A DNA stretch of 64,000 nucleotides from a virus: positions 1-64,000 of IMG/VR virus record IMGVR_UViG_3300025652_000043; one strand, written 5' to 3'. Positions within the stretch are counted from its first letter, which is position 1. Each line of letters opens with the position of its first letter. A program made the translations under genes and the position numbers. Shown piece by piece: positions 19,801-64,000 of the stretch. Below the pieces are notes generated by a model. The model saw only the letters and a program-made list of their open reading frames with translations, was not told the DNA's origin and made no database searches.

Positions 19801-22800
19801 GGAGTGTCTAAAAAAGATTATAAAAGAGCTGCAAATAAGTTTTTTAAAGATACTTATGTTCCTACACTTGAAAAATGTAAAGAATATATTGAAAAGTATG
19901 AAGGTTTTCATAAAACTTTTCCTGATGATAAAGGTGTACAAGCTACTTTATCTACCTTAAGGTCTCAAGAAATAAATTTTGAAAATATTCTAAAGAATGA
20001 AGAGGCATTTTTTGATAAAGCTTATGAAGAAGGATTAAAAAAAGGTAATATTAAAGATTTAGAGGACACTGATGACACTATTAAAAAGGAAGACTTAGAC
20101 CATAATGAAGAGGAGTCTTTAACTAGAAATTTCTATAGAAGTTCTAATGAAGATATACATAAAGAAAAAATAGGAGCTAAATTAAAAAGAGTTTTTACAG
20201 GAATACCTACAGGTGAAAAAGGTTTTATGGGTACACCTTTATATGAAGATTTTGATATGATTTACAATTTCATAGCTACTTATATCTCTAGTCCATTGCC
20301 TACTGATCCATCTTTTAATGAAATGGTTAAAAGACTTAAACTTATTGAAGCAAAAGTGCCATGGATGAAAGAAGTTATAAAAAGGTTAGAAGAGTCTCCA
20401 CAAGATACTAAAGCTAGTTTTGTTAGTAATATGTATAAATACTCTGCTAATGCAAAATTTGTAATGTTCAATAAAAACAAAGAAAAAGGTATTGAGTCTT
20501 CTTTATGGTTTAGTAATAGAAACAATCATATAAGAAAAATCAAAGAAAGTTGGAATGAAAATTTTAAAAGAAGTAAAATAGTTAAAGGCAATGTACTTGA
20601 TAAGAAAATATTAAGGGGTTTAGCAGAGCAATATGAATCTTGGAATCCACAAAATAAACATTCTGAATCTGATGAGGTATTAAAAGATTGGTTAGCTGCA
20701 TTTGGATTAGAGTTTTCAGATGGTACATGGGAAGACATAAAGCTTGGAAAACTAGTGTTAACTCATAAATCAGGTAGTAAGCCAATTAGTTTTGAGAACC
20801 TATTTAAACCTACATCAAAAGGTAGAAATTATCAATTATTTGATTCTTTATATAAATATGCTAGAGATAATTCTAAAAAAGAAGGAGATTTAGATTTTAC
20901 TGAAAATGCAAAACTCTATCCTTTAGAAGACTTAAGCACAACAATAAAAGGATTACTAGATTTAGAAGTGCTTTATAATACTTCTACAAAAAGTATTACA
21001 AGAAGAGATGGTGGAAAAACTGTTAGTGAACTGGTATATCCTAGTTTTTTCTTAGATACTATGAGAAATCTAATTAGTTCTGCAAATGATACTGAAGGTG
21101 GACATCAATATATTAAGGATTTGATGAATATACCTTTTAGTGAGAATTCAATGATACTTGAATTATTGCTTAAAAATAAAAACTTTAAAGATATCTTTTC
21201 TTATGGTGAAGTTGGATTAATGTCACTTAGAAATCAATATGAAAAACCTAATGACTATGCTAAAATAGAAGACTTATCTCCAATTGACTATGTATTTCAT
21301 CAGATGGCTATGTTTCAAGACATGAAAAATGAAGAAATTTCAGCTACTAGAAAAGGTTTTAAAATGAGAGTGGGAACAGTATCTACTCCTACCAGTTCAG
21401 ATAAAGGTAGAATGATGTTACTTAAAACTGCTGTATATGATTTTTTCAAAACTGATTTAGCTTTTGAGGGAGATGATTTTAAGTTTACTAAAAGGCTTAA
21501 AGAAGTCTTATATGCAGATTTAATTGAACCAGAATTAAATAGAAAAGTTCAACATACTACTCAAGATGTTAAGAAATATAATATAGGTGCAATGAGGTTT
21601 AATAATATGCCTTCACTTAATTATATGGTTAATTCTGAAGGACTTACTGTAGAGAAATTTTTTGAAAACATTGAAGTTCGTACTGAAAAAGGAGAAAATT
21701 TAAGTTCTGAAGAAATTAAAGCAGAATTTAAACTTCAATTTTTTACAGAAGCTACCAATATTCTTGAACAATCTATAAACTCAGAGGTAAATAGTGAATT
21801 AAAAGACATACAAGAATTTGAAGCCAGCAATGACATTAATTCAAGTAAAGACGGAATTAATAGTACAACTTATTTAAATAGAAAAGACCCATTAAATGAG
21901 AGTGACTCTGCTATGCAGAAGAAAAGAAGAGCAATGTTGGATTATGTAATAAATTCTAACATAAGTAATATGAATATTATGCAAACTATTTCAGGTGACC
22001 CTGCAGTTTACTATAATTCTAAGGTTACACCTTCAATAAAAGAGACACATGATTTATCTTCTAAAGAATTAGGAGTGAATATGGGTAAGAGACTTGCACT
22101 TATGATTGCTCCTGGTGTTGCTTTATCTAATTCACATAATGAACAGTATATTCAAATAATGTTAAAAGATAATGATATAGTAGCTCCAAATATAGAGTTA
22201 ATTGCAGGCTACCATTATGGAAAAAGTATACTTAAAAAAACTTATGAGAAAGAAACTTATAAGGTAATTATGGATAAGATTGCTACTGGAGAATATAAAA
22301 ATGATAGCCCTCAATATGAAGAAATAAAGAAAAAATTACCTAAAATAGCACCTTTTTTAAGTATTGAAAATACTGATGCACAGGAATATACAACTCTTGC
22401 AGAGCATTTAAGAGTACTTAAAGGTTTGGGTAGAATAAATAAAGAACAAGAAAAAAATATTTTAGATAACAAGGATAATTTATCTGAAGCTGATATGTCT
22501 TTAATTCTACAACCTATGAAACCTGTTTATACAGGGGAGATTATAGAAAGAGATGAAAAAGGTAAAGTAATGTTTAAGAGAATGGTTTATATTAAATCAT
22601 CTTCATTTCCTTTAATACCTGAATTAATTAATGGTACTCCTCTTGAAGGATTGATGAATACCATGAATGAGATTGAGAAAAAACAAACAAAATTTAATGG
22701 TGGTAAATATGTTGGAGTTAGAGCTTCCTATGGTAGTGCAAATAAATTAGGCTCTACTGAAAGAGAAATAAATCCTACATCTGAAACTGATTTGGCTACA

Positions 22801-25800
22801 CTACTTCAATCTAGAGAAGATGGTAAAGCACCTAAAAGAAGTGCTTTATTATTAAATAGATCAGGTTTTAAAATTCAACAAGATGTACCTAATAAATCAG
22901 CTAAAAATGGTAGTGACCAAGTATCTATGGGTACACAAATTTTTAAACTATTATTTGGTGATGGTCTTGCACAACATAGTACTAAAGAGTTTGATGGACC
23001 ACAATTATTAGAAGACTTTCATAGAGCTTTTTCTAAGATGATTAATATTAATAAAGATGCTCTTGTTGAAGAATTAGGTTTAGATGAAAATTATCAACCT
23101 AAAGATAAAGAGCAATATATGGAAAAGGTAAAAGCTTTACTTCTTAGAGAAGCTAAAGAAAGAAACTTTTCTGAAAATGATATGAAATCTTTTGACATTG
23201 ACTCTAGAAAAAACTCTAAAACTGGAGAGACAATTTACTATTTCAAACAACCTTTATGGTTGTCAGGCAATAGTAATAAGATTGAGGCAATGTTTAATGC
23301 TATTATAAACAATAAAATTTTTAAGCAAAAATTGCCAGGAAATTCATTTGTAGTAGCATCTAATAATGGTATCACTTTACAAACTCAAGAAAATTTTGAT
23401 AAAAAGAATAATAGTATAGTATACTTAGGAGATTATAAAGGTGGAGAATTACAAGGTAATGAAGTACTTGCACCATCTAGAATTAAACTTAATGGTACAC
23501 TTATAGACCTTTTTGAGGTAAGTGAAAGTGGAAACTATAAATATGTTATAAAAGATAAAGATGGTAGTTTTACTATAAATGAGAAAGCTATAGACCCTGC
23601 TTTATTTGAAAATTTTGTATTTAGAACTCCAACATCTTCACATGGTTCAGGTTCAGGTATTAAAATAGTAGGATTTATTCCTGCAGTATTAGGAGATTTA
23701 ATGATTACTCCTAGTAATTTTGTAACTCAAATGGGTCAGGATTTTGATGTAGATAAGCTTACTGCTTATCAGTATCATCATGTCTATAATGAGAAAACTA
23801 AAAGAATAGAAATCTTTAATAAAGGACATAAAGAAGCAAGATTAAGAAGTTTTAGAAATAAGTTATCTGAAATTGATAATAAAATAAAAAAAGAAGATGA
23901 GCTTTCTAAAGAAGAAAAAGATTCTGTAAATAATTTTCTTAAAGCTTTACTTGCAGATTTTAAAAGTTTTGATAATGCTGAAGAAGCTATAACACAAGTA
24001 GATGAGGTAGTTGATAAAATATTAGAAGATGAAGAAATTACTTTAGCAAAGAAAAGGGATTCTCTCTTAGAAAAATTAAGAACTATGCCTGCTAAACTTG
24101 ATATGAAGTTAGCACAAAATATGTTTATAGGTATACATAATAAAATTTACAATAGTACAGATCCTTTTATACAAGCTAAAATTAATAAAGTGCTTTCAAT
24201 GGATACTGCAACTGAACAAGCAGAAAACATTGATAATAAAGTGAGTAGCTCTAAAATAGTTAACTTAACTTCTCCTAAATATCAAAGAGAAAAATTAATT
24301 TCAGGCTCTACTGGTAATTCTGCTATTGGAGTTTATGCTAAAGGAATGACTCTTAATTCTCTTATACAACAACAAAAAGAAGGAGATAAACTTGAAATTT
24401 TAAATGCAGAAGGAGAGAAAAAAGTAAGATTTATAGGAGACTTAAAAACAGAAGGTGAATTTGGTTTACTTCAAAATTTAACTATTTCTCCTAAAAAAGA
24501 AAATGGAGAAAGAATTGAAGCTACAGAAGTTGAAAAATATTTTACCAGACCTTTAGTTGAATCTTTAGATGAAAGGGTGAACACTGCTACTGATAATGAA
24601 AAAGCTCAAATCTTAGGTAGAGTAGGTATTACTAATATCAAAAATGTTGCAGTAGATAATTTCTTAGCTTTACAAGGTATTGATGTTGAAGTAAGAGAAT
24701 TAGATATAGATAAGGGTGAATATGAGGAAGCTAACCCTTTTCATAAAATAGGTTATTTGCCAGGCACTACTGAGCCTGTATATTATAGTGAACATTCTAT
24801 TCCTTACTTATTACACTCTCAACCTATTATAAAAGAGTATTTTAAAAGGTTAAAGAATGGTAGAGCACAAGCAGGAAACTTAACTAAAGATTTAGAAAAA
24901 ACTATACTTGCTGAATTAATGGGAGACTACAAGATTCAACCTAAATTCAGTGAAAATTTTACAGGTAAAAAACTTTTTAATAGTCTGTCTAATAATATAG
25001 ATTCTGAATTTCAAAAAGAAGTTTTATTTCTATATGCAGATTTAATGAAAGATGCAGATAAGGTTAAAGAAATTCAAAGTTCTATTGACTTATCTAACTT
25101 GGGTAAATCTATGTGGGAAGCTAAAGATAAAATAGAAAAATTTAAAGATTTAGCAACTAATAAGGACTTCAAAAACTTAAGTAATCTTATAGGTGATTTT
25201 AATTATAAGGGTGAAGGGGTTTATTTAGGAGATATAAATATAGGAGATGTTAAGAATACTAAAATAGAGGGTCTTTATTTTAAACCCACTACTAATCAAG
25301 GTATAATGGTTAGTACAGCAGTGTCTCTTGCCAGAAACTTATTTTTAAATAACTTTTTTCCTTATTATGACTCTGCTATTGAGATAGCAATGCAAGATAT
25401 TATTACTGTTTCTGGTAAAAAAGATACTCCTCAATTTAGAGAAGAAGTTTTTAATAATATAAAGCAATTTATAACCTCTTCAGATAGTAATGGAATATTC
25501 TTAGACACTACTAAAAATGTTAGAGAAGACTTATTATTTGAAAAAGATGGTCCATCTTTATCTACTTATGTAGCAGACACATTAGGAGTTACTGATAAAG
25601 AATATTCAAAAGGTATCAATTTACTTGGCAAAAATATTCTTATTACTTCTTTTAGTTATGAGAAAGGAGTAAATGGTAAGCCTAGTTTAATAAAGTATGA
25701 TAATACTGCTGCAGGTAATACTAATGAAGAAGATTTTCATGTAGCTATGAAAGAATTGCTAGTAAGTGATTCTCCTTTACCACCTAGAAATGGTAGACCT

Positions 25801-27336
25801 TATACTACTAGAATGTTAGCTCAAGATTTAGTGTCTTATTCTTATGTATCAGGTGGTATAATTAGTGAAGCTATACAATTTCATAAATTTATTCCTTTAG
25901 AGTATTTTGACCAAATTACTGTAAAACAAGTATATAAAGGTGGCAGAGTCATAGAAATGCCTGTAACTAAAAAAATGCAAGGTTATGATACTAGGATAAT
26001 GAATTGGAGTGATATGGGCATTTTAGGTAATTTCACAACACAATTTATCCAAAATAATCCTACTTTTTCAAGAGCATTATCTAAAGAAGATATAAAATCT
26101 TTAAACTATTTAGACAAGACTAAAAGAAGTTTTGAATATTTTGTTAAAGAGGGAGAAATTTTACCAGAATTTGTAAGGTTATCTGGTAACAGTAGAGCTA
26201 AAAACAAACAAGGAAAAACAAGTCTTTATAAATTAGTTTTTGGAAATACTTATGAGCAAATAGATGTATTAGGTGAATTTGGAATGACTGAATATAGTGC
26301 AAAAGAGTCTGATCTAAAAACATCAATAGGAGTGGCTACCCCTAGAAAAGTATTTACTAAAAAGAATGGAGGATTTACTTATACTCAACCTAAGACTGCA
26401 CCTTTTGAAGCAAATACAGGAGATAGTGTACTTACATTACTTAAAAAAGTAAAAGCAGATAATGCATCTTCTAATCCTAATTTATCTGAAATAGCCTCTA
26501 CTTTAATAGACTTATTTGGAGATAAGGCAATGGAACTTCAAATAAAAGTTGAGGAGGATTTAGGACCTGCAGGAGTTTATAGCCCATCTAATAATACTAT
26601 AACACTCAAAAAAGGTTCTAAAAACTTGGGAGAAACTTTTGTACATGAATTTATACATGGAGTAACTTCAAAATACCTTAATCCTTATATAAATCACACT
26701 ACAGGGCAATTAAAAACTGATATTGAAATTCCTAAAGATATTCAAGAGATAAATAGTGTTTTTCTTGAGACTAGAAATTATATTATAGATACCTATAAAG
26801 AGGAATATGATAATTTTATGTTCAAATGGGAGACTTATAAAGATGCAAAAAAGAATAAAGAAGCTTCTGGTGTTATTTTTACTCCGAGAGAGAGAAATTT
26901 ATTCTATTCTACTGTAAATTTAAAAGAGTATCTTGCAATATCATTAGGAAATAATCAACTTTTATTAGAGGAAACTTCAAAAGTACCTTATAAATCTACT
27001 AAGATTACATTGTCAGAGAAATTGATGAAAGTCTTAAATAGAATATTTGAAAGTATGGCAGGAAAAGAGAATAGTTTAGCTGAACAAATTATAGGTAAAA
27101 ATCTTGATTTTATTCAAAAAAGAGCTAATACTTTAGAAAAATCTTCTGAGAAACTTCCATCTGAATTAGATATACAAAGGGATTTAGGTTCTTCTCCAAA
27201 TTTAGATAACTATTATAATGGAAATGCTCCTCCTCTTGACCAATATGGAGACTTATTTGGTAATGACCAAGATATTTCTTTTGAAAAATTAGTAGAAACA
27301 GTAATGTTACCTCTAGGAACAAAACCTTGTAAATAA
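13837..27336 (+). CDS. Giant virion-packaged DNA-dependent RNA polymerase polyprotein (crAss/phi14:2 gp66 type) with C-terminal zincin
   Basis: GQDFDVDK catalytic motif (nt 23740-23757), FRTPTSSHGS, TDAQEY, QPMKPVY.G, YIKSSSFPLIP, ATDNEK; FVHEFIH zincin at nt 26644-26658. Confidence 0.88.
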   Translation: MDDIFEEENLLKHGYKISPFGAAYSDLQGNYLESITIDGQTKSSLIDKKEYTRLYDEHYNLQNSGYKFDPYSGVPESNQKQQGLAKMYAEEFRKDAANAVIPIEVKESEEFKETFKEESKLKEEQGEKVYPTVEAQEEAAEKGTMYESFTEEDMSKEDKSDLKSLMAQKEKLLEEDPDFDAESAQSIEDRNKEAEQYGKYNPIQVFAGLQNIIDSAIAQVVPTGTGMKSEENKLKLEELNKEIASKKRGFVANSKQRLKGSIADIEQRREELNTLAHPQKSTRLDYAQKILEETLWTLEDHENNSWMPQTVFSMYNAIDQGTRGIVGLVSEVPTILHLKYDATNDNDIDESQFLVADALRMRQKVTNANLNQSDAHKFIIGINESLKFVGFSKVGRNAGTTVANNLLAKGLPKVTTKLGKKAVKWGSDLAGFGTQLVMHPSTYYSSADRYAGDITLDEEGNIITDLKTTRTLLRELNESLELIADEQSKGENSVYDKTQLDINKGIIEDAIEKAKANAPAGLVEAFAYGLTETGKELFFETQLTKGLNFLGSKLKKIPSLSKLGKNIDDISAVSKSKGAMDAQRRFAGVSNTGTRVIGNLLEEDLEEVAVQLTPTIGELNWEDYKRQASEVLTFDFHAKVLAQTFVMNKGFQALGKTNEFLDDHSWRNNFTAMIAAGKKGVTKFDYVAERKAAYDRKVFLKTSFTKLGDASSRVIAEDILMKTGEGTITIQDYHNKISELNRAGDPIGAMELKRDLLRKQAIHAANSGATKEFSLALKKLSLNTKVDGQTRQLAKDMLEEANDIQNDVSTYPNSEEILDYKSKLKYSSKTLEEVEMAQLKVQFDDMYENTRNLEEELAKEDLTLQDFSSNEKVEDFDAKVNRVVENLSEHEIQFLKLETVKTTLKNSQKQVNKLLKDATSPETQAIIHERGKYFKTIDEVNRRYFNGKMTASEFKKLVAPTLEKRGVSGILKGGKLVEINNNIYKAKKKGEIQAQAIKSQRTKLRKQAEQEAKDLAQPVEEKIEIVNDVIEEQRENLKKAQEENDVEGIKKATDLLEYWAIEVAKLEKEGSTPAEVETKKAKIEAERQAELKRMTFNELFELFKGHQVGLIGNKKELEGDTFRIIDTVKEGKEVVIERQKPDGTISSFGIPVGKDFKKFEEKYKDVELSIEDINKKYDAEVATLESQPTQQTSEVKVTPAESIVQPVEQKTDEQKKYEASLNKTAEVIDTVISQEADSKIQVNDKDEIDFNDIQDFDLPIEQEHEETVEALKLFAQEYEAVYKVKPTFKDWWEATIEAEDGNIYVFDKNLLEWTAAQWNFAKLGNSNWQKVWKDNYTNNSKIRVRFKSIREAYRSNEELAKVNTEIVKTPIVTSNTPKSPATGNPMALVSGDVTPNVGKTMTTNVKGNFSAIKYQNEKEESGEITVYTKEDKNKEIPQLNENTPLEIKELLHPDNLNPGDKVNIRVIDESEWSTILVNIYNDKGIIDKRISFQEWYDTNSKEWLKDNKGSTLEDFQNSELFISRIPMFYTNPATNNDVMFVADTAWYNQYSMGDPDTDNKVIDLNNPSSTVQESVKLGKKNALQLRQDVIIGEVTEGIIETKTSGFAQKIPGNLPVKTLWEVARDNQIVLFDGSDFVDLEGNTINTNTHVILNMDKVLENFQNAGFNNGTKSTMQSMYLSPDHKTTENGEVIQHYKAFMVLRTDEGGREKQAMREDVETAKLILSAHEALTTKETVNGITYEKALELRDMLLDNSDVALNIAEAEDAYGMVRGLVALETTNGLIDYPSSGGNKKYKSFLTKLLEDKLKVIQNTSKDVPTARGISIKNNDGTFKVEVKPYVDFLKTRLSTNIMSYNMGTEENWASTHNIQPIIKINPVRSEEVKSIQENQQVVNETPTETKVEDIKEDVAKARELEQLKELDKEKDSFLASINALNETTPSTDELSDESLPEMDDVTLIRDSLKTIGDLAAKDQRDIIQFLRDSLSLVVGVSKKDYKRAANKFFKDTYVPTLEKCKEYIEKYEGFHKTFPDDKGVQATLSTLRSQEINFENILKNEEAFFDKAYEEGLKKGNIKDLEDTDDTIKKEDLDHNEEESLTRNFYRSSNEDIHKEKIGAKLKRVFTGIPTGEKGFMGTPLYEDFDMIYNFIATYISSPLPTDPSFNEMVKRLKLIEAKVPWMKEVIKRLEESPQDTKASFVSNMYKYSANAKFVMFNKNKEKGIESSLWFSNRNNHIRKIKESWNENFKRSKIVKGNVLDKKILRGLAEQYESWNPQNKHSESDEVLKDWLAAFGLEFSDGTWEDIKLGKLVLTHKSGSKPISFENLFKPTSKGRNYQLFDSLYKYARDNSKKEGDLDFTENAKLYPLEDLSTTIKGLLDLEVLYNTSTKSITRRDGGKTVSELVYPSFFLDTMRNLISSANDTEGGHQYIKDLMNIPFSENSMILELLLKNKNFKDIFSYGEVGLMSLRNQYEKPNDYAKIEDLSPIDYVFHQMAMFQDMKNEEISATRKGFKMRVGTVSTPTSSDKGRMMLLKTAVYDFFKTDLAFEGDDFKFTKRLKEVLYADLIEPELNRKVQHTTQDVKKYNIGAMRFNNMPSLNYMVNSEGLTVEKFFENIEVRTEKGENLSSEEIKAEFKLQFFTEATNILEQSINSEVNSELKDIQEFEASNDINSSKDGINSTTYLNRKDPLNESDSAMQKKRRAMLDYVINSNISNMNIMQTISGDPAVYYNSKVTPSIKETHDLSSKELGVNMGKRLALMIAPGVALSNSHNEQYIQIMLKDNDIVAPNIELIAGYHYGKSILKKTYEKETYKVIMDKIATGEYKNDSPQYEEIKKKLPKIAPFLSIENTDAQEYTTLAEHLRVLKGLGRINKEQEKNILDNKDNLSEADMSLILQPMKPVYTGEIIERDEKGKVMFKRMVYIKSSSFPLIPELINGTPLEGLMNTMNEIEKKQTKFNGGKYVGVRASYGSANKLGSTEREINPTSETDLATLLQSREDGKAPKRSALLLNRSGFKIQQDVPNKSAKNGSDQVSMGTQIFKLLFGDGLAQHSTKEFDGPQLLEDFHRAFSKMININKDALVEELGLDENYQPKDKEQYMEKVKALLLREAKERNFSENDMKSFDIDSRKNSKTGETIYYFKQPLWLSGNSNKIEAMFNAIINNKIFKQKLPGNSFVVASNNGITLQTQENFDKKNNSIVYLGDYKGGELQGNEVLAPSRIKLNGTLIDLFEVSESGNYKYVIKDKDGSFTINEKAIDPALFENFVFRTPTSSHGSGSGIKIVGFIPAVLGDLMITPSNFVTQMGQDFDVDKLTAYQYHHVYNEKTKRIEIFNKGHKEARLRSFRNKLSEIDNKIKKEDELSKEEKDSVNNFLKALLADFKSFDNAEEAITQVDEVVDKILEDEEITLAKKRDSLLEKLRTMPAKLDMKLAQNMFIGIHNKIYNSTDPFIQAKINKVLSMDTATEQAENIDNKVSSSKIVNLTSPKYQREKLISGSTGNSAIGVYAKGMTLNSLIQQQKEGDKLEILNAEGEKKVRFIGDLKTEGEFGLLQNLTISPKKENGERIEATEVEKYFTRPLVESLDERVNTATDNEKAQILGRVGITNIKNVAVDNFLALQGIDVEVRELDIDKGEYEEANPFHKIGYLPGTTEPVYYSEHSIPYLLHSQPIIKEYFKRLKNGRAQAGNLTKDLEKTILAELMGDYKIQPKFSENFTGKKLFNSLSNNIDSEFQKEVLFLYADLMKDADKVKEIQSSIDLSNLGKSMWEAKDKIEKFKDLATNKDFKNLSNLIGDFNYKGEGVYLGDINIGDVKNTKIEGLYFKPTTNQGIMVSTAVSLARNLFLNNFFPYYDSAIEIAMQDIITVSGKKDTPQFREEVFNNIKQFITSSDSNGIFLDTTKNVREDLLFEKDGPSLSTYVADTLGVTDKEYSKGINLLGKNILITSFSYEKGVNGKPSLIKYDNTAAGNTNEEDFHVAMKELLVSDSPLPPRNGRPYTTRMLAQDLVSYSYVSGGIISEAIQFHKFIPLEYFDQITVKQVYKGGRVIEMPVTKKMQGYDTRIMNWSDMGILGNFTTQFIQNNPTFSRALSKEDIKSLNYLDKTKRSFEYFVKEGEILPEFVRLSGNSRAKNKQGKTSLYKLVFGNTYEQIDVLGEFGMTEYSAKESDLKTSIGVATPRKVFTKKNGGFTYTQPKTAPFEANTGDSVLTLLKKVKADNASSNPNLSEIASTLIDLFGDKAMELQIKVEEDLGPAGVYSPSNNTITLKKGSKNLGETFVHEFIHGVTSKYLNPYINHTTGQLKTDIEIPKDIQEINSVFLETRNYIIDTYKEEYDNFMFKWETYKDAKKNKEASGVIFTPRERNLFYSTVNLKEYLAISLGNNQLLLEETSKVPYKSTKITLSEKLMKVLNRIFESMAGKENSLAEQIIGKNLDFIQKRANTLEKSSEKLPSELDIQRDLGSSPNLDNYYNGNAPPLDQYGDLFGNDQDISFEKLVETVMLPLGTKPCK

Positions 27337-55269: not shown

Positions 55270-55270
55270 A

Positions 55271-56582: not shown

Positions 56583-56584
56583 AA

Positions 56585-57304: not shown

Positions 57305-57332
57305 TGTTTTTTGTTTTTAATTAATTAATATA

Positions 57333-57650: not shown

Positions 57651-57679
57651 TCTATTCTAAATTCACAAAGGTTCAATGT

Positions 57680-58222: not shown

Positions 58223-58247
58223 ACTATTATTGAAGTAATTATACTAA

Positions 58248-58283
58248 AAATCTAAAAGGCTTTGTGTCTCGTTTCACTCTACC
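58248..58283 (-). terminator. Possible intrinsic terminator
   Basis: AAATCTAAAAGG...CCTTTTAGATTT inverted repeat. Confidence 0.45.
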
Positions 58284-58358
58284 TTTTAGATTTAATACTC
58301 ATGACTAATAAACTAACCAAACCAAATTTAAACATGAGCATATAACAAATATAATTAA

Positions 58359-58619
58359 TTAATCAATATAATTTGATGCATTCTCTAAAACATACCATTG
58401 TTTAGGTCTACCATCATCATATTTAAAAGCTTTCCATTCTCTTTCATCAAATGCATATCCTGCTGCTGCAAAATGTCCATTATCTACTACTACTACCATT
58501 CCAGGTAGGAATTTCTCATCTGTCACTTTTACTGCTCCTGCAGCTTCTAAATTGTGACATTTTGATGCAAATGAAGCACCAATATGTACTCCATTAATAA
58601 CATTAATATACTTTCCCAT
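58359..58619 (-). CDS. Hypothetical phage protein
   Basis: MGKYIN...VVVVDNGHFAAAGYAFDEREW...DGRPKQW. Confidence 0.7.
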   Translation of the reverse strand: MGKYINVINGVHIGASFASKCHNLEAAGAVKVTDEKFLPGMVVVVDNGHFAAAGYAFDEREWKAFKYDDGRPKQWYVLENASNYID

Positions 58620-58621
58620 TT

Positions 58622-58936
58622 TTATTTGGTTTTAAGCTTAAACTTTTGATGAAATTCATGAGACTCTCTCACAAACATTAGTCCGTTTCTTTTATATGCC
58701 ACCATGGTGCTATCATCTTCACATCCATTTGTTGCATTAATTACTTGAAGATTAACAAGAGTGTATTCATCTCCTGTCTTCTCATGTATATATTTTACCA
58801 TTTCTTTTTGGTTTTGCAATAAGGATATTTTATTCTTTTTATTAATATTTCTCCTTACTTGTGCTTTAAACATTAATAATATTAATATGACTACTAATGT
58901 TGACATCACAATGTTTACTATTTTACTTGTATCCAT
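58622..58936 (-). CDS. Membrane-anchored DUF1653-like protein
   Basis: N-terminal TM, then YIHEKTGDEY...INATN...MVAY...MFVRESHEFHQKF. Confidence 0.55.
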   Translation of the reverse strand: MDTSKIVNIVMSTLVVILILLMFKAQVRRNINKKNKISLLQNQKEMVKYIHEKTGDEYTLVNLQVINATNGCEDDSTMVAYKRNGLMFVRESHEFHQKFKLKTK

Positions 58937-59044
58937 TACTATTTGGTTTTATTATTAAAGAACAATATGATTATTAAAATCCATATCATCATAAGATAAT
59001 CCCATATATTAAAAAAACTATCTGCATGCATAATTTAGCTATAT

Positions 59045-59272
59045 TTAATTGTTATCAAAATCATCTTCTAAGGCAGATTCAGGGAACATTTTATCCCAAT
59101 CTTCTTTGGTATTTCCTGTCATTATGAACTCCCTTTGTTCTGCATTTAAATTAGGGAATACATCTTGAATACATTTGACTCCTTTAGCATACTCATATAA
59201 TTGAGCTTGAGTTACTGGTAAGTCCATTACATTGGCTTTCCCCGTTATAGGGGATACTTTACTTACTTTCAT
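59045..59272 (-). CDS. Hypothetical phage protein
   Basis: SPITGKANVMDLPVT...IQDVFPNLNAEQREFIMTG...W. Confidence 0.7.
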   Translation of the reverse strand: MKVSKVSPITGKANVMDLPVTQAQLYEYAKGVKCIQDVFPNLNAEQREFIMTGNTKEDWDKMFPESALEDDFDNN

Positions 59273-59469
59273 TTGATTAAAATTTAACAGTTATTATTTG
59301 GATTTGTGCTTGAGAACTTGTAATATTGATATCTCAATATCACTTTGTTGGGCTACTAACTATGTTTTAGACCACAAGGGTCTAAAAGTCTTTTGAAGGT
59401 GCAGGAAACTTTGCTTTATAAAAGCTAAATTTAGAGTAAAAAAAAAGAATTAGTTAGGGTAAAATAATA

Positions 59470-59505
59470 ATAAGAGTAAGTACAGTTATTTGTACTTACT
59501 CTTAT
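59470..59505 (-). terminator. Intrinsic terminator
   Basis: ATAAGAGTAAGTACA-loop-TGTACTTACTCTTAT, 15-bp perfect stem just after the stop of 59521..60138. Confidence 0.75.
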
Positions 59506-59520
59506 GTATTATAGAGGAAA

Positions 59521-60138
59521 CTAGTTTCCTACTAATGCTTGACCTGCAACTACATTTTCTCCTGTCATTTCTGATTGGATAACTTGTGAAGCATAGAAAT
59601 CATCTGCTACAGAGTTTCTATTGTCAACATCTTCTTTTGCAACCATTGAAAAGAATACTGATCTATACTGAGGCTTATTGTTATCATCTAAGATAAGCTG
59701 ACCTTCCTTTGCATGATTTTCACCATATCTCACAACTTGTGAGTCTGCAAATTCATCCATTGTTCTTAGTCCTTCTTGTATAGCATAAGCTTGGTTAGAA
59801 GTTAAGATTGGATGATTAGACATTATTCTATATAAACATGAAGTAGAAGGAATTTTCCCTATTACGTCATCTATTGATGCTACTGCAAAAGGAACATCAA
59901 TCCAACATACTCTGTTTTCTTCATTTGTGAACTCTTGTTCAGCAAATCCGAAATCAGCAAGTGCAAATGGGTTATCTTGCAAATCATTCTTGATTTGTTT
60001 AGATGGGTAATAACTGACAGTTTTAATAACTTGTCTCAATTGGGCAGTTTTAGTGCCTTCTTTTTGGTACTCTCCTACATAAAGTTTGTCAACACTAATA
60101 GGTGTTGCATTTGTAGTTTTTCTAATTGAATTTTCCAT
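59521..60138 (-). CDS. Hypothetical early protein
   Basis: 205-aa ORF with A-rich leader. Confidence 0.7.
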   Translation of the reverse strand: MENSIRKTTNATPISVDKLYVGEYQKEGTKTAQLRQVIKTVSYYPSKQIKNDLQDNPFALADFGFAEQEFTNEENRVCWIDVPFAVASIDDVIGKIPSTSCLYRIMSNHPILTSNQAYAIQEGLRTMDEFADSQVVRYGENHAKEGQLILDDNNKPQYRSVFFSMVAKEDVDNRNSVADDFYASQVIQSEMTGENVVAGQALVGN

Positions 60139-60374
60139 GGTCTTTGTTTTAGATGGAATTAATAAAAATGTGTTTTGGTCTCTAGTTTTACAAGTGAGAA
60201 GCTTGGCATATTAGGCTATGTTACAAAATGTATTTGAATTTTGGTATTGCTAAATATAGTGGTTATTTGGTGACTGTGTTCTATTGCACACATTATCAGC
60301 CTGTTAGCCTTAATACTTGAAGTAATACTTTAACCAATTACATTCTACTTAACAGCTTAACTTTTACTGCTTGA

Positions 60375-60390
60375 ATTAGTGAGGGTATTG
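60375..60390 (-). promoter_or_regulatory. Putative phage early promoter motif, copy 1
   Basis: + strand ATTAGTGAGGGTATTG (consensus WHTAGTnnnGGTnTTG). Confidence 0.65.
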
Positions 60391-60417
60391 CATTGGGAAA
60401 AACAAATTGATTAAAAA

Positions 60418-60456
60418 ACCACTCCTATTTAGTTATTCAACTAATATAAGAGTGGT
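60418..60456 (-). terminator. Intrinsic terminator
   Basis: ACCACTC..TTAGTT-loop-AACTAA..GAGTGGT, followed by a T-tract on the minus strand. Confidence 0.65.
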
Positions 60457-60644
60457 CTGAGTCATTTTTCCATTTTTATTTAATAGGTACAAAGAAAGCT
60501 ACCAATAAACTCAATTCTATTTACACACATCAGGATGTTAAATAGTATGGTAGTAAACCAAATCCCTAACAAGCTATGTAGCCTGATCTGAATTAAATAC
60601 ATATATGCAAGGACTACATTAAGTTAGTACTTTGCCTTGCTTAA

Positions 60645-60660
60645 ATTAGTGAGGGTTTTG
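60645..60660 (-). promoter_or_regulatory. Putative phage early promoter motif, copy 2
   Basis: ATTAGTGAGGGTTTTG. Confidence 0.65.
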
Positions 60661-60706
60661 AACTGGGAGTTAATAAATAAATAATCCTTTATACCTTTAA
60701 TAGAGT

Positions 60707-60722
60707 ATAAGTTGGGGTATTG
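60707..60722 (-). promoter_or_regulatory. Degenerate early promoter motif, copy 3
   Basis: ATAAGTTGGGGTATTG. Confidence 0.45.
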
Positions 60723-60744
60723 AATAAAAAATAAAATAGAAAAG

Positions 60745-60776
60745 AAACAAGATGTCTAATTAAAGACACCTTGTTT
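60745..60776 (-). terminator. Intrinsic terminator
   Basis: AAACAAGATGTCT-loop-AGACACCTTGTTT directly after a stop codon. Confidence 0.65.
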
Positions 60777-60779
60777 ATT

Positions 60780-61088
60780 TTAAAGCTCTTGTTCATACTT
60801 AGCAAGAGCTACTTTATCTATTGATTCTTCTGATGCAAATAAAACATTATGTACTTGCATAGATGATTTAATATCTTTAGTAATCTTGTTTATTAATACT
60901 TCAAATGTATTAATATGGTTTTCCAAAAGAATAACTCTTGACTTTTTGTGTGATGGTGTGTTTACCTCCATCTCCACAAATGCCATAGTTAATTCATCCC
61001 ATTGGTCTCTGATTGCTATTAATTCTTGAGTTGACAAGTCAACTGTTTTGCCTACAATGGCATCTGCTCTTCTAAGTTTTAAGTCCAT
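60780..61088 (-). CDS. Hypothetical early protein
   Basis: 102 aa, TAAATACAT leader. Confidence 0.7.
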   Translation of the reverse strand: MDLKLRRADAIVGKTVDLSTQELIAIRDQWDELTMAFVEMEVNTPSHKKSRVILLENHINTFEVLINKITKDIKSSMQVHNVLFASEESIDKVALAKYEQEL

Positions 61089-61124
61089 ATTTATATGTAT
61101 TTATGAATGACAATGTTGTCTATA

Positions 61125-61140
61125 ATTAGTGGGGGTCTTG
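61125..61140 (-). promoter_or_regulatory. Putative phage early promoter motif, copy 4
   Basis: ATTAGTGGGGGTCTTG. Confidence 0.65.
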
Positions 61141-61160
61141 AATTGAGATTAAAAGAAAAA

Positions 61161-61190
61161 GAATCCAGGTACATTGCTGTACCCAGATTC
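61161..61190 (-). terminator. Intrinsic terminator
   Basis: GAATCCAGGTACA-loop-TGTACCCAGATTC with a T-tract on the minus strand. Confidence 0.65.
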
Positions 61191-61197
61191 TAACATG

Positions 61198-61452
61198 CTA
61201 AAACTCTGCTACTGTATTAGAGTCTTTGATGTTTATCATACATGCTTCCATGTAATCCCCATCCTCTACTAGAAATGCTATTTCAGCATTTATATCAAGG
61301 TCTCCTTGAGCTTTGTAGGTTTTCCCACTTGCTCCTACTACGAAGAACTTACCATTTTTAGGGTTTTTCTTCAACTTCATGCTTGGCTCATTAGCCAATG
61401 ATTTGAACTCACTAATTGTTAGGAATTCAATGTTACCTGATGTATTTTCCAT
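61198..61452 (-). CDS. Hypothetical early protein
   Basis: 84 aa (KNPKNGKFFV), TAAATACAT leader. Confidence 0.7.
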   Translation of the reverse strand: MENTSGNIEFLTISEFKSLANEPSMKLKKNPKNGKFFVVGASGKTYKAQGDLDINAEIAFLVEDGDYMEACMINIKDSNTVAEF

Positions 61453-61493
61453 AATATATGTATTTAGACGACTTTTAGTTTATATCGTCATAA

Positions 61494-61509
61494 ACTAGTA
61501 AGGGTTTTG
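61494..61509 (-). promoter_or_regulatory. Putative phage early promoter motif, copy 5
   Basis: ACTAGTAAGGGTTTTG. Confidence 0.65.
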
Positions 61510-61596
61510 AATTGGGAAATGAAGAAAAAATAAACAATATACCTCCACTACTACACTATATTATTATCAACTAATAACCTTATAAAGGTTTAAAAA

Positions 61597-61628
61597 ATAA
61601 CCCAAGTGTATCTCTACACTCAGGTTAT
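61597..61628 (-). terminator. Intrinsic terminator (near-duplicate of 62131-62162)
   Basis: ATAACCCAAGTGTA-TCTC-TACACTCAGGTTAT. Confidence 0.65.
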
Positions 61629-61634
61629 TAGTTA

Positions 61635-62051
61635 CTACATTTTGTCTATGACCTTAGAGGCTTTATGAGATATAGCTTTGTCCTTGAACATCTCTCTCTT
61701 CTCATCAACAGACAACAAGTCTTCACACTCATAGTACAGTTCTCTTTCCTTAGCAAGGTCATTCATTAAGTTTATAATGACAGACTGATGCTTATAAGCT
61801 TTGATAAACTCTGCCAAGTCTTTATCACAAGACTCTATAAGGTCTTCACTTTCCAATAGTTTAGCACCTACTAATCTAGATTGTAAGATACTAATAAGGA
61901 AAACAGATTGACTATCACTAACTGTTTGACCAAAGTCAAGTCTAGTGTTACCAACATTGAATACTGTTCTGAGTTCAACAGCTCTAGCTTCTTGTAGATT
62001 AACATTGATAGTGTCTACACTCAATTTCAACTCAATAAATAATTCTAACAT
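61635..62051 (-). CDS. Hypothetical early protein
   Basis: 138 aa, TAAATACAT leader. Confidence 0.7.
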   Translation of the reverse strand: MLELFIELKLSVDTINVNLQEARAVELRTVFNVGNTRLDFGQTVSDSQSVFLISILQSRLVGAKLLESEDLIESCDKDLAEFIKAYKHQSVIINLMNDLAKERELYYECEDLLSVDEKREMFKDKAISHKASKVIDKM

Positions 62052-62093
62052 AATACATGTATTTAAGATAGTAAATTCAGCTTACTATCTCAA

Positions 62094-62109
62094 ACTAGTC
62101 TGGGTATTG
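62094..62109 (-). promoter_or_regulatory. Putative phage early promoter motif, copy 6
   Basis: ACTAGTCTGGGTATTG. Confidence 0.65.
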
Positions 62110-62130
62110 AAATATGTAAAAAACATAAAA

Positions 62131-62162
62131 ATAACCTAAGTATATCTCTATACTTAGGTTAT
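62131..62162 (-). terminator. Intrinsic terminator
   Basis: Perfect 14-bp stem ATAACCTAAGTATA-TCTC-TATACTTAGGTTAT. Confidence 0.75.
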
Positions 62163-62168
62163 TAGTTA

Positions 62169-62528
62169 CTACTTTTCAATATCAAAGCTCTTATGAACTT
62201 TGTTTAAAGTCTTCTTCATACCTATAGTAGGTATAATTGCAAAGACAACACCTGAAGAGTAGAATGTCAACATGTCTTTTTCAGGTGTACCATGCATACA
62301 CTTAGGATAGAGACCAATACCTGAAGTAGAAGTATGTCCATCTTTCTCTTCAAGATGTACTACCATAGAATATCCTTCCTGATTCTCCATCCACTCTATG
62401 TCAGTAGATATGCCAACTACAGTTTCACCATAGTTATCTCCTCCAAATAGGAAAGCAGAGATGACTAGTTTCTCTAAATCAGAATAGTAAGTTGCTGTTT
62501 CCTTGTTAATGTCAATAAGATTCTTCAT
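62169..62528 (-). CDS. Hypothetical early protein
   Basis: 119 aa, TAAATACAT leader. Confidence 0.7.
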   Translation of the reverse strand: MKNLIDINKETATYYSDLEKLVISAFLFGGDNYGETVVGISTDIEWMENQEGYSMVVHLEEKDGHTSTSGIGLYPKCMHGTPEKDMLTFYSSGVVFAIIPTIGMKKTLNKVHKSFDIEK

Positions 62529-62570
62529 AATATATGTATTTAAGATAGCTTTTAGATTATACTATCATAA

Positions 62571-62586
62571 ACTAGTGAAGGTATTG
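62571..62586 (-). promoter_or_regulatory. Putative phage early promoter motif, copy 7
   Basis: ACTAGTGAAGGTATTG. Confidence 0.65.
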
Positions 62587-62603
62587 AAATATGTAAAAAA
62601 GAA

Positions 62604-62628
62604 AAGAGTAAGCCAGAAGCCTACTCTT
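62604..62628 (-). terminator. Intrinsic terminator
   Basis: AAGAGTA.GC-loop-GC.TACTCTT with a T-tract on the minus strand. Confidence 0.6.
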
Positions 62629-62634
62629 GTTCTC

Positions 62635-62958
62635 TTAGATACCATGTGTTGTGTAACATGTATCCATCATCTCATTTAATGTCCACTCTACTTCATGTTG
62701 AAGTTCTTCTTCAGGTGTATAGTCTTCATCAGGATATTCCACTTCTGCTAGAGTTTCATAAGACTCTCCAGTTTCATGGTCTTTCCAAGTTAAGACATAC
62801 TGGTCTTCACTTATTCTATTAACAGTGATAGAACAACATCCTCTCTTACTTTGTAAGATGTAATGGTCATTTGATGGTTTGCTTAGGAGAGTCAGTCCAA
62901 CTAGGACTGCAACAACTAAGACTAGTACGGGCAATATATATTTGTCTTTCATATTCAT
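62635..62958 (-). CDS. Membrane-anchored acidic early protein
   Basis: N-terminal TM (ILPVLVLVVAVLVGLTLL) and acidic C-terminal half. Confidence 0.65.
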   Translation of the reverse strand: MNMKDKYILPVLVLVVAVLVGLTLLSKPSNDHYILQSKRGCCSITVNRISEDQYVLTWKDHETGESYETLAEVEYPDEDYTPEEELQHEVEWTLNEMMDTCYTTHGI

Positions 62959-62960
62959 AA

Positions 62961-62976
62961 ATTAGTTAAGGTATTG
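62961..62976 (-). promoter_or_regulatory. Putative phage early promoter motif, copy 8
   Basis: ATTAGTTAAGGTATTG, abutting the ATG (possibly a leaderless mRNA). Confidence 0.6.
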
Positions 62977-62989
62977 AGTGATAGTTAAA

Positions 62990-63013
62990 GGGAGGTGATA
63001 CTATACCACCCCC
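62990..63013 (-). terminator. Possible intrinsic terminator
   Basis: GGGAGGTG...CACCCCC stem after the stop of 63023..63325. Confidence 0.45.
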
Positions 63014-63022
63014 CTATTGGTA

Positions 63023-63325
63023 TTATGTACAGTTATGTACCCAATACTTATGTCCACATATAGGACATTGATGATACTCCAACCAAGCATAGTATGGAGT
63101 GCTATCTAAACCAAGTAGTACTGTCTCAGTTCTATGAATAGCTTCCATCATCTCAGGTACAGGAGCATCACATTGTACACAATGAGTATGAGCATTCACC
63201 TCAATGTTTTCTATCTTGTCTGTACTACAGTCAACAAGATCTCTCCAATCTCTACTGATATGGTCTATAGCATGTATAGTACCATCTATACTCCATATAA
63301 GAGTATAACTTCTTCTTGTGTTCAT
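63023..63325 (-). CDS. Early protein with zinc finger
   Basis: CVQC...CPIC; TAAATACAT leader. Confidence 0.7.
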   Translation of the reverse strand: MNTRRSYTLIWSIDGTIHAIDHISRDWRDLVDCSTDKIENIEVNAHTHCVQCDAPVPEMMEAIHRTETVLLGLDSTPYYAWLEYHQCPICGHKYWVHNCT

Positions 63326-63380
63326 TACACATATGTATTTAATATGGCTCTCACTTGTGGGCAGAGAGCCTACTCCCTTA

Positions 63381-63396
63381 CTTAGTCAAGGTGTTG
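63381..63396 (-). promoter_or_regulatory. Putative phage early promoter motif, copy 9
   Basis: CTTAGTCAAGGTGTTG. Confidence 0.55.
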
Positions 63397-63400
63397 TCAC

Positions 63401-63628
63401 CTAGAATGGCAGGTCATCATACAATTCCCTGTCATCTAGATTACAATCATCCTCTACATCATACCAGTCCTCACATTCAATGTCTTCTGGTATATCATTC
63501 CCTATGTAGTAATAGTCTACATAGTGATACACATCAGATAGACACTCTCCTGTTGAGAAAGTCTGACCATGATAAGTGTCACACTCCTTGGTGTCACACA
63601 TAGATTGATAGATAAATACTAGATCCAT
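63401..63628 (-). CDS. Very acidic small early protein ending in DDLPF
   Basis: 75 aa, Asp/Glu/Tyr/Cys-rich; first gene after promoter copy 10. Confidence 0.65.
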   Translation of the reverse strand: MDLVFIYQSMCDTKECDTYHGQTFSTGECLSDVYHYVDYYYIGNDIPEDIECEDWYDVEDDCNLDDRELYDDLPF

Positions 63629-63724
63629 GTCTCTATAGGTTAATACTCTCCACCATAATATATATTCATGGCTGAGAATACTTGGTTATCTCCCAATTCA
63701 AGGGGGGAGTTTCCCTTTCCTAAA

Positions 63725-63740
63725 ACTAGTGGGGGTGTTG
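63725..63740 (-). promoter_or_regulatory. Putative phage early promoter motif, copy 10 (first of the early block)
   Basis: ACTAGTGGGGGTGTTG. Confidence 0.65.
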
Positions 63741-63838
63741 TTATAATAGGCATACATATTCCATAACCCTACAAAAATTTTTTTCTAAATAATTTTTAGA
63801 TATTTCACTTAATACTTAAATTGTATTAATATTTTTCT

Positions 63839-63846
63839 TAACTTTG
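63839..63846 (+). promoter_or_regulatory. Bacteroidota sigma70 -7 element of a divergent promoter
   Basis: TAACTTTG, 5 nt before the ATG at 63851. Confidence 0.5.
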
Positions 63847-63850
63847 ATTT

Positions 63851-64000
63851 ATGATGACACCAGAAAAACAAAAAAGAGAATTAGACCGTTGTAAAAATGG
63901 TCATAAGGATATGACAGGAGAAGAGTACTTTTTCTATAATTATTTTAAGATAGGTGGACAGTTGCCTAATCCTAGAACATATACCAAAGAAAGGTTCAAA
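63851..64000 (+). CDS. 5' end of an ORF resembling the N-terminal segment of crAss-like large terminase (truncated by window)
   Basis: MMTPEKQKRELDRCKNGHKDMTGEEYFFYNYFKI..., open to the window end. Confidence 0.4.
   Translation, partial: MMTPEKQKRELDRCKNGHKDMTGEEYFFYNYFKIGGQLPNPRTYTKERFK

Follow-up and report, generated by a model that had tools for sequence, protein, structure and literature searches.

A co-oriented 16-nt element heads the first small leftward genes of a freshwater crAss-like phage and may be a virion RNA polymerase promoter

Small cassettes at the start of the leftward arm

The window analysed here is a 64,000-nt stretch of an 83,041-bp viral contig. Near its right-hand end lies a run of minus-strand genes in which each copy of a short element forms the head of a small unit, usually right after the hairpin-plus-T-run terminator that closes the preceding one. 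An initial annotation of the sequence had described about ten copies of this element and proposed that it is the promoter of a virion RNA polymerase (vRNAP) encoded in the same window. The features of the region are as follows.

59521..63628, minus strand: cassette genes, ORFs of 75, 100, 107, 119, 138, 84, 102 and 205 aa
63725..63740, minus strand: copy 1 (CAACACCCCCACTAGT), first leftward-arm unit, adjoining the divergent junction, no same-strand gene upstream
63381..63396, minus strand: copy 2 (CAACACCTTGACTAAG), final letter G where the other copies have T
62961..62976, minus strand: copy 3, ATG 2 or 8 nt downstream
62571..62586, minus strand: copy 4, pattern match
62094..62109, minus strand: copy 5, pattern match
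61494..61509, minus strand: copy 6, pattern match
61125..61140, minus strand: copy 7, pattern match
60707..60722, minus strand: copy 8 (CAATACCCCAACTTAT), tandem with copy 9 and 46 nt upstream of it
60645..60660, minus strand: copy 9 (CAAAACCCTCACTAAT), the form that relatives carry most often
60375..60390, minus strand: copy 10, head of the 205-aa gene, with a leader of 236 nt between them
59449..59464, minus strand: partial copy (TTTTACCCTAACTAAT), first three letters different, after the terminator at 59470-59505 and 176 nt before a 75-aa ORF
62990..63014, minus strand: G/C-rich hairpin after the 100-aa ORF, weak T-run, read by eye
62604..62628, minus strand: terminator of the 107-aa unit, terminator scan
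62130..62163, minus strand: terminator of the 119-aa unit, terminator scan
61593..61630, minus strand: terminator of the 138-aa unit, sharing 90% identity with the one at 62127-62176
61160..61191, minus strand: terminator of the 84-aa unit, terminator scan
60745..60776, minus strand: terminator of the 102-aa unit, terminator scan
60411..60456, minus strand: hairpin and T-run ending the short unit of copies 8 and 9, read by eye, not called by the scan
59470..59505, minus strand: intrinsic terminator of the 205-aa unit, 15-pair stem and T-run, terminator scan

None of the eight cassette ORFs matched a Pfam family, and their only PHROG matches are to groups of unknown function (the 205-aa ORF to phrog_16309, the 84-aa ORF to phrog_15744 and, borderline at E 0.00096, the 119-aa ORF to phrog_34230). 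The 107-aa ORF has a hydrophobic N-terminal start. A terminator scan of 56–64 kb called 13 terminator-like sites, compared with 2.8 ± 1.6 in shuffled sequence. Hairpins stand before eight of the eleven element sites, five called by the scan and three read by eye; 63381 and 63725 have no terminator before them, and 60645 follows the copy at 60707.

The next ATG lies 36–55 nt downstream of five copies and 96 nt downstream of copy 1, with the distances for copies 3 and 10 and the partial copy as listed; an mRNA from copy 3 would be leaderless or nearly so. Copy 1 sits at a junction with an A/T palindrome about 45 nt upstream and a C-run downstream, a context that recurs in relatives. Copy 2 lies 4 nt past the stop codon of the preceding ORF, and no terminator intervenes. 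Copy 8 is one letter off the pattern first proposed but, through an ACTTAT that Flavobacterium phage FpV4 also has, matches the family pattern. The unit of copy 9 spans about 200 nt, has no ORF other than one of 40 aa and runs to the terminator at 60411-60456.

Occurrence, RNA coverage and conservation of the element

A search of the 83-kb genome returned nine exact minus-strand matches to CAAnACCnnnACTA, all co-oriented and spanning 60377-63740, where about 0.06–0.08 would be expected by chance; across both strands of the full contig there was no further exact copy, and none at all on the other strand, in line with the initial annotation, which had noticed no full copy elsewhere. Its own 16-nt plus-strand pattern, WHTAGTNNNGGTNTTG, has eight exact matches in the window, all on the plus strand (60375, 60645, 61125, 61494, 62094, 62571, 62961 and 63725); the 100 dinucleotide-preserving shuffles averaged 0.06 matches, and not one of them reached eight. 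The 14-nt core TAGTNNNGGTNTTG has nine exact matches, the additional one being 63383, and allowing one mismatch gains 60709 together with six sites scattered over both strands, in keeping with the chance level of 4.49. A family-level pattern, CAANACCNNNACTNRT, occurs at nine sites on the minus strand and none on the plus strand, compared with a mean of 0.08 and a maximum of 2 in 200 first-order Markov simulations. The array thus comprises nine exact copies and two degenerate ones (60707 and 59449). All 11 sites are intergenic and every exact copy lies on the gene strand, which bears out the single orientation first reported. The triplet between ACC and ACT varies freely in this phage. An alignment of 53 copies yielded an empty consensus structure on both strands, and the mean folding energy of the element was −1.48, compared with −1.04 ± 1.15 in shuffles.

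Contigs from four freshwater metatranscriptome runs, matched at an identity of at least 99%, cover one unit only, from 59499 to 60342-60356:

59499..60356, minus strand (assumed from the gene): RNA-run coverage, the 205-aa gene and its leader
59499-59801 and 59821-60342: X13 contigs
59545-60348: X14 contig
59499-59805 and 59969-60356: X16 contigs
59564-60348: X17 contig

On one side these contigs end 19–33 nt downstream of the copy at 60375 and on the other within the terminator at 59470-59505, with zero loose ends at the boundaries of 59499..60356; they are assembled contigs, which cannot reveal the start, strand or level of a transcript, and the four runs come from one year and habitat, possibly from one campaign.

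The element recurs in related phages. FpV4, whose proteins are 37–46% identical to those of the phage under study, carries five copies within two mismatches of CAAAACCCTCACTTAT, all on the minus strand at the syntenic start of the leftward arm, and a reversed-motif control gave no match there. Two to six co-oriented copies were found in 14 of 24 near-complete uncultured relatives with a virion protein of about 4,400 aa, and five complete relatives together gave 17 matches (control, 0), of which 16 fall into a single co-oriented cluster in each genome. A match was also present in 17 of 33 further records with a vRNAP homologue (control, one match in total); the 19 of these 33 that are at least 90% complete divide into nine with at least two co-oriented copies, two with one and eight with none. 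More distant records keep a 3′ core, AACCCnCACTAAT, in co-oriented clusters of four (G016) and three (G023) copies. In diverged relatives the element stays at its syntenic place while its flanks drift, where only a t at −1 and a t..tAG following the motif are conserved; AG stands at +5/+6 past the motif in 36 of 44 relatives' copies, at positions left free in the search pattern. All five motif-bearing relatives that were checked encode a 4374–4400-aa homologue of the 4499-aa protein described below. The link between motif and vRNAP similarity across the 33 further records would follow just as well from common descent.

A candidate enzyme and competing readings

Position, orientation, statistics, conservation and the RNA-run contigs all point to a promoter, and we hold that reading with high confidence. 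This part of the original proposal stands, as does the gene context; the pairing with an enzyme draws on exclusion and analogy. The candidate is encoded at the following position.

13837..27336, plus strand: 4499-aa virion protein, candidate enzyme, crAss-type RNAP catalytic motif (DFDVD) at residue 3302

We took as crAss-type virion RNAPs two-barrel enzymes with DFDxD carrying I or V at the fourth place. The genome encodes such an enzyme by its DFDVD and by a match of the catalytic segment to the 2184-aa ORF of phage phi14:2 (E 2.6e-12), in agreement with the initial annotation. D[FY]DxD is present in one of the five giant ORFs checked. The 4499-aa protein has no sequence match in the PDB, and a Pfam scan of 75 ORFs found neither a T7-like RNAP (PF00940-type) nor any other RNA polymerase. 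By exclusion and by analogy with phi14:2, we somewhat favour the view that the element is the promoter of this injected enzyme. The fuller proposition seems to us evenly poised: a contiguous, hairpin-free, T3-like element of 16–20 nt would serve in double-stranded form as the promoter of a Crassvirales-type virion RNAP, with a start 4–6 nt downstream, and the pair would be conserved across a clade of flavobacterial phages of about 83–105 kb that includes FpV4.

The preprint text on phi14:2 supports the background invoked in the initial annotation: gp66, the homologous enzyme, makes rifampicin-resistant early transcripts (bioRxiv 10.1101/2020.03.07.982082). Both phages place small genes and long non-coding gaps before their replication genes. 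They differ in that, according to the same text, its authors found no motif common to the regions upstream of gp66-made transcripts, and our element forms no cluster in phi14:2, where scattered matches occur at chance level on both strands. In phi14:2 the entire replication arm is rifampicin-resistant, whereas the array here is confined to the first 3.4–4.3 kb. Purified gp66 is reported in the preprint to prefer single-stranded DNA and barely to transcribe double-stranded phage DNA, so promoter-specific initiation by the crAss-type vRNAP family is unproven. The analogy with phi14:2 brings no promoter along. A literature search for transcription studies of this phage or of FpV4 (time course, rifampicin or 5′-end map) found none.

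Another parallel is Thermus phage P23-45, whose pre-early promoters are assigned to the virion two-barrel RNAP gp96 in PMC10770324. As described there, it shares with our proposal a single-chain two-barrel RNAP delivered in the virion, a conserved short motif ahead of the first small genes and the presence of that motif in enzyme-bearing relatives. Its motif is described as AT-rich and its genes lie at the first-entering genome end, whereas the element here has a C-rich core.

The early promoters of coliphage N4 are DNA hairpins read by an injected virion RNAP, which is a T7-like and not a two-barrel enzyme. Both systems would have a giant polymerase that enters by injection, together with a small number of co-oriented promoters that head the first genes and are followed by terminators. 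The phage under study has no conserved hairpin on either strand (53 copies) and its candidate enzyme is two-barrel, and we reject an N4-type promoter.

A doubtful alternative is that host RNA polymerase reads the element with an alternative or phage-modified sigma factor. The ACTA(A/G)TTT part loosely resembles TA..TTT of the −7 box, the units finish at ordinary intrinsic terminators, and the text of PMC9723704 gives motifs for only some of the seven F. psychrophilum ECF sigma factors. That text places the Bacteroidota primary-sigma consensus at a −7 box TAnnTTTG (−12 to −5) with TTG about 19 nt upstream. No exact copy (0 of 9) carries TAnnTTTG at or after the motif, which excludes a primary-sigma promoter, agrees with the difference from TAnnTTTG first noted and counts against the host enzyme more generally; genome-wide, 10 of 103 TAnnTTTG sites are intergenic and none adjoins a copy. 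The element resembles none of the six F. psychrophilum sigma motifs published in that source, and sigma-70-like sites are unenriched (44 compared with 46.8 ± 7.4). Also against a host sigma factor, conservation covers a single uninterrupted stretch of about 20 nt instead of two boxes 17–19 nt apart, and this stretch is kept near letter-for-letter across phages with the low protein identity given above.

It is quite unlikely that the element is no promoter at all and instead a regulator binding site, an RNA-end or termination signal of the preceding unit, or a joint at which gene cassettes recombine. There is precedent for a termination signal in P23-45, where a conserved 26-nt motif marks virion-RNAP termination sites near the genome end (PMC10770324). 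The cassette boundaries here have 43–66 nt in common and two terminators are 90% identical, as expected of recombining cassettes. The promoter-early stem-loop (PeSL) cassettes of T4-type phages likewise enclose small orphan genes, with a promoter on one side and a stem-loop terminator on the other, and their repeated boundaries could allow cassettes to be exchanged; they differ in that T4 uses host sigma-70 early promoters. A recombination joint would add to a promoter role, not replace it. Against these readings, the motif lacks symmetry and in every case points the same way as the gene that follows it, and the RNA-run contigs end short of it at both ends of the covered unit. It is not a 3′-end signal, because the first copy has no same-strand gene upstream and thus nothing to terminate.

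The T3/T7 group offers a further comparison, as a contiguous element of about 20 nt with an A/T-rich end before a purine start. T7-group promoters conserve the middle triplet, which is free here between ACC and ACT, and the Pfam scan of 75 ORFs found no cognate T7-like single-subunit RNAP; a T7-group promoter is therefore unlikely, and the likeness to the T3 promoter is most simply chance or convergence. Very improbable, finally, is another phage-supplied reader, such as a second polymerase domain in one of the giant virion proteins or a packaged specificity factor: 12 nt of the copy at 60645 (AACCCTCACTAA) also occur in the standard T3 promoter string, which 67 papers give alongside the words 'T3 promoter', ATTAACCCTCACTAAT is found in one distant relative, and no function is assigned to some 3,000 residues of the 4499-aa protein or to any part of a 1656-aa protein, set against the free triplet and the empty Pfam and PDB searches for such an enzyme.

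Proposed mechanism and significance

The full minus-strand signal reads approximately (t)tCAAnACCnnnACTAnT, followed by three or four A/T-rich bases and a purine pair at which transcription probably begins, 4–6 nt past the motif. The transcript would pass a short leader, often with a 5′ stem–loop, then one small gene, and end at a hairpin-plus-T-run terminator 10–20 nt before the next copy. The first 3.4–4.3 kb of the leftward arm would thus be an array of 8–10 separate promoter–gene–terminator units, which we call early from gene order. The likeliest enzyme would be the injected 4499-aa two-barrel virion RNAP, at work before synthesis of phage proteins begins. Three parts of this scheme are inferred: where exactly transcription starts, that it is early, and which polymerase is responsible.

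Our literature search found no promoter for a crAss-type virion RNAP, with phi14:2 covered by preprint text without supplements or journal version, and the word 'promoter' is absent from the 2023 Crassvirales review. For the crAss-like enzyme the structure has been solved and a role in early transcription shown, and the preprint text of its one study gives no promoter motif and reports initiation by the purified enzyme on single-stranded DNA only. In this freshwater crAss-like phage, the same 16-base signal stands before each of the first small genes, at a place kept in relatives. A clade-wide signal with a cultured member, FpV4 (host F. psychrophilum), opens the question of how the enzyme finds its genes to direct experiment, and the motif would serve to flag early genes across hundreds of the clade's uncultured genomes.

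Organization of the motif array

The 83,041-bp contig (30.5% G+C; the window is its first 64 kb) is identified as crAss-like by Pfam matches to the Crassvirus major capsid protein, tail ring proteins 1, 2 and 3/4, and the muzzle protein. The rightward arm, from 63851 past the contig end and on as far as 32306, contains the structural and cargo genes, and leftward genes run from about 63750 to 32330, with small genes first and replication genes after them. Its closest cultured relatives are the FpV4 group phages of Flavobacterium psychrophilum (37% identity in the virion RNA polymerase (vRNAP) segment, 46% in a 205-aa protein of the leftward arm). A phage collection search returned no near-identical DNA, and DNA matching the studied stretch was found mainly in freshwater metagenome runs. 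In the window, neither Rfam at gathering threshold nor a tRNA scan gave a match. The phage also encodes a GroEL- and GroES-like chaperonin pair and a ThiF-like protein beside a protein with a weak JAB-domain match (side loci 34901–36791 and 39656–41498).

The initial annotation had proposed an array of 16-nt elements of the CAANACC-NNN-ACTART type, named here by their plus-strand start. The array is real: the proposed pattern matches eight times in the window against 0.06 expected, and its 14-nt core nine times exactly, always on the plus strand, between 60377 and 63740. These are the sole exact core matches in the whole contig, in agreement with the earlier remark that no full copy lay elsewhere, and the copies at 60707 (degenerate) and 59449 (partial) are as originally described. 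The gene-strand reading of the element is CAAnACCnnnACTA(A/G)T. With a broader pattern, one that accommodates the relatives too, there are nine minus-strand sites and no plus-strand site; simulated sequences averaged 0.08 sites and never exceeded 2.

Along the minus strand, each unit boundary consists of a stop codon, a hairpin with a T-run, a gap of about 10–20 nt and the motif. The motif is often preceded by tcccaatt or acatattt and is followed by three to four A/T-rich bases and then a purine pair; at six copies a stem–loop begins 5–8 nt past it. Terminator-like sites are enriched in 56–64 kb (13 versus 2.8 ± 1.6). Boundaries of separate units have 43–66 nt in common and two terminators are 90% identical, so the array arose partly by duplication, or its units exchange sequence. 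In five to six cassette genes, the small minus-strand genes of the array, a block near TAAATACATATATT abuts the ATG. This block is not conserved among relatives; it probably reflects either a common translation-start context or past duplication of cassettes.

TAAATACATATATT-like blocks before the ATGs of minus-strand cassette genes
61089–61105
61453–61466
62052–62065
62529–62542
63326–63345

Pfam assigned no family to any of the eight cassette ORFs. Clear PHROG families were found for the 205-aa and 84-aa products alone, both of unknown function, and a 119-aa ORF gave a borderline PHROG match (E 0.00096). The 205-aa protein (59521–60138), a member of phrog_16309, is conserved in the FpV4 group; its unit, headed by copy 60375, has a 236-nt leader. 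The unit of copies 60707 and 60645 spans about 200 nt, with a 40-aa ORF as its only one.

Conservation of the motif among relatives

FpV4 carries five copies with at most two mismatches to CAAAACCCTCACTTAT, all at the start of its leftward arm and adjoining the divergent junction; one further three-mismatch site elsewhere looks like chance.

Motif copies in FpV4 (circular record)
380, minus strand
263, minus strand
4, minus strand
87795, minus strand
83697, minus strand

Scanning IMG/VR for exact matches to CAAAACCCTCACTNAT gave 116 loci, and about 20 contigs (hand count from the scan tables) have at least two exact copies. In the DNA retrieved for these loci, at least two same-strand copies of a looser pattern occur in 22 of the 116, and 44 distinct instances were collected from these loci. 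Five complete records hold 17 matches, 16 of them in one co-oriented cluster per genome, against none for the control; all five encode a vRNAP homologue (4374–4400 aa, 40–44% identity). The 'direct terminal repeats' that IMG/VR assigns to relatives may be just marks of circular assembly.

When viral contigs were scanned with one protein at a time, neither the 205-aa protein nor the vRNAP segment retrieved a relative; an alignment query with the vRNAP segment reached 80 loci. Among the 33 of these records that were scanned (the longest and the closest relatives of the window), 17 contain a motif match, and the reversed control gave a single match in total. Nineteen records are at least 90% complete: nine have two to six co-oriented copies, two have one and eight have none. 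All nine array-bearing records share at least 37% identity with the vRNAP segment of the window, and nine of the other ten share at most 36%, the exception being one uncultured relative (G031) with 40% identity across just 177 residues.

Two distant uncultured relatives, G016 and G023, have four and three co-oriented, clustered AACCCCCACTAAT-like sites that differ in the 5′ triplet, so the signal drifts with lineage. Such drift is expected of a phage-specific signal and equally from plain common descent. Phage phi14:2 shows no clustering, only scattered motif matches on both strands. Positions that the search left unconstrained are conserved as well: the motif is flanked by a T on either side, and an AG stands at +5/+6 past it in 36 of the 44 copies from relatives. 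Judged from the sequence pattern, this AG is likely to be the transcription start region.

RNA contigs and neighbouring elements

Part of the stretch is present in four freshwater metatranscriptome runs, from four studies of one year that may be one campaign. When positions 50000–64000 were compared, contigs of at least 99% identity covered 59499–60356 in all four runs. This interval comprises the 205-aa gene and its long leader, and the gene is the only one in the compared range present almost whole in every run. The contigs stop upstream at 60342, 60348, 60356 and 60348, 19–33 nt short of the motif 3′ end at 60375, and downstream at 59499 (twice), 59545 and 59564, with 59499 lying inside the terminator stem 59470–59505; neither limit has loose contig ends. 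A promoter at this position would predict such a transcript, one that includes a 220-nt leader and whose upstream limit lies close to the motif. The coincident stops are a weak hint of it, and assembled contigs reveal neither strand nor true ends. Elsewhere, the pieces listed include two short exact ones (54541–54691 and 57702–57909); no contig of the four runs covers the remaining cassette units or the greater part of 50–59 kb, which is uninformative either way. Short pieces at 58017–58050, 57544–57574 and a few other places have loose ends and derive from other organisms or a shared element. The roughly 34 nt at 58017–58050, common to several unrelated contigs in all four runs and loose-ended on both sides, are a conserved or mobile short element.

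The leftward arm contains four long non-coding gaps of 248–641 nt (57305–57679, 58007–58358, 59273–59520 and 60139–60779) that match no Rfam family, and at the corresponding place FpV4 leaves 2.3 kb unannotated. From such long gaps, phi14:2 is described as producing abundant early non-coding RNAs (bioRxiv 10.1101/2020.03.07.982082). Two intergenic minus-strand copies of GACCCTACTCT(C/T)ATTAG, with highest coordinates 58222 and 57396, sit in the gaps 58007–58358 and 57305–57679, upstream of 108-aa and 239-aa ORFs. This sequence resembles the motif minus one base on either side of ACT and may represent another class of promoter, serving the genes that come next in the arm.

A near-perfect palindrome, TTAATAC-N7-GTATTAA, is present twice: at 63809–63829 it lies in the divergent junction, some 20 nt ahead of the first gene of the rightward arm (ATG at 63851), and at 60893–60913 it falls within the 102-aa cassette gene. 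A half-related form, AATACTTAAAT, precedes the gene at 72362. The palindrome may be an operator or a piece of a rightward promoter. Host-type TAACTTTG boxes at 63839–63846 and 1186–1193 are separated from the ATGs that follow (63851 and 1199) by just 4–5 nt, and would make the rightward mRNAs leaderless or nearly so.

Candidate polymerases for the motif

The vRNAP candidate, a 4499-aa ORF (13837–27336, plus strand), has DFDVD at residue 3302; the catalytic motif of crAss-like virion RNAPs is described as having I or V in its fourth position (bioRxiv 10.1101/2020.03.07.982082). Its residues 3001–3600 match the 2184-aa ORF of phi14:2 (E 2.6e-12) and a 4289-aa ORF of FpV4 (E 3.3e-86), and the protein has no match among PDB sequences at E ≤0.01. 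In phi14:2, rifampicin-resistant early RNAs are attributed to the virion polymerase in the same preprint.

Reading by the host polymerase is the less likely alternative. TAnnTTTG is absent at or after the motif in all nine copies, bearing out the contrast with the host promoter drawn at the outset; TAnnTTTG sites in intergenic DNA are few and none adjoins a motif copy, and sigma-70-like pairs occur at chance level. The contiguous C-rich block of 16–20 nt resembles none of the six motif classes described for F. psychrophilum, namely three TAnnTTTG variants, a sigma-54 type, TAnnTTGY and an ECF type with CGT (PMC9723704). A sigma-70-like arrangement of TTCAAA as −35 with a −10 in the leader was discarded, since the two boxes would be 8 or 21 nt apart and the hexamers downstream vary among copies. 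Much less probably, a second polymerase domain hidden in phage proteins reads the motif; Pfam searches of 75 ORFs detected no second polymerase. Atlas look-ups with the 1656-aa protein and residues 1–2000 of the 4499-aa protein gave just large-polyvalent-protein-type leads, scoring at most 0.92, and no polymerase family, and were given no weight.

Among known systems, no conserved hairpin was found at the motif, which is thus not an N4-type promoter. The standard T3 promoter string has 12 contiguous letters (AACCCTCACTAA, copy 60645) in common with the commonest motif form, and one distant relative has ATTAACCCTCACTAAT; that string appears alongside the words 'T3 promoter' in 67 papers. In this phage the middle triplet varies and no T7-like polymerase was found, so the likeness is regarded as chance or convergence. 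The nearest precedent is P23-45: the published account assigns its virion two-barrel RNAP an AT-rich motif that lies ahead of the pre-early genes (PMC10770324). No early promoter motif is reported in the main text of the phi14:2 preprint (bioRxiv 10.1101/2020.03.07.982082), the word 'promoter' is absent from a 2023 Crassvirales review, and no description came up in literature searches on crAss-like early promoters, start-site mapping or cappable-seq.

With no host-type box, no N4-type hairpin and no second polymerase among the 75 ORFs searched with Pfam, the virion polymerase is the only phage-specific candidate in view. By exclusion and by analogy with phi14:2, we somewhat favour the injected virion polymerase as the enzyme that would read the motif, the best available reading. 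The element itself is conserved and lineage-specific, and is very probably a promoter that heads an array of small units, presumably the earliest to be transcribed.
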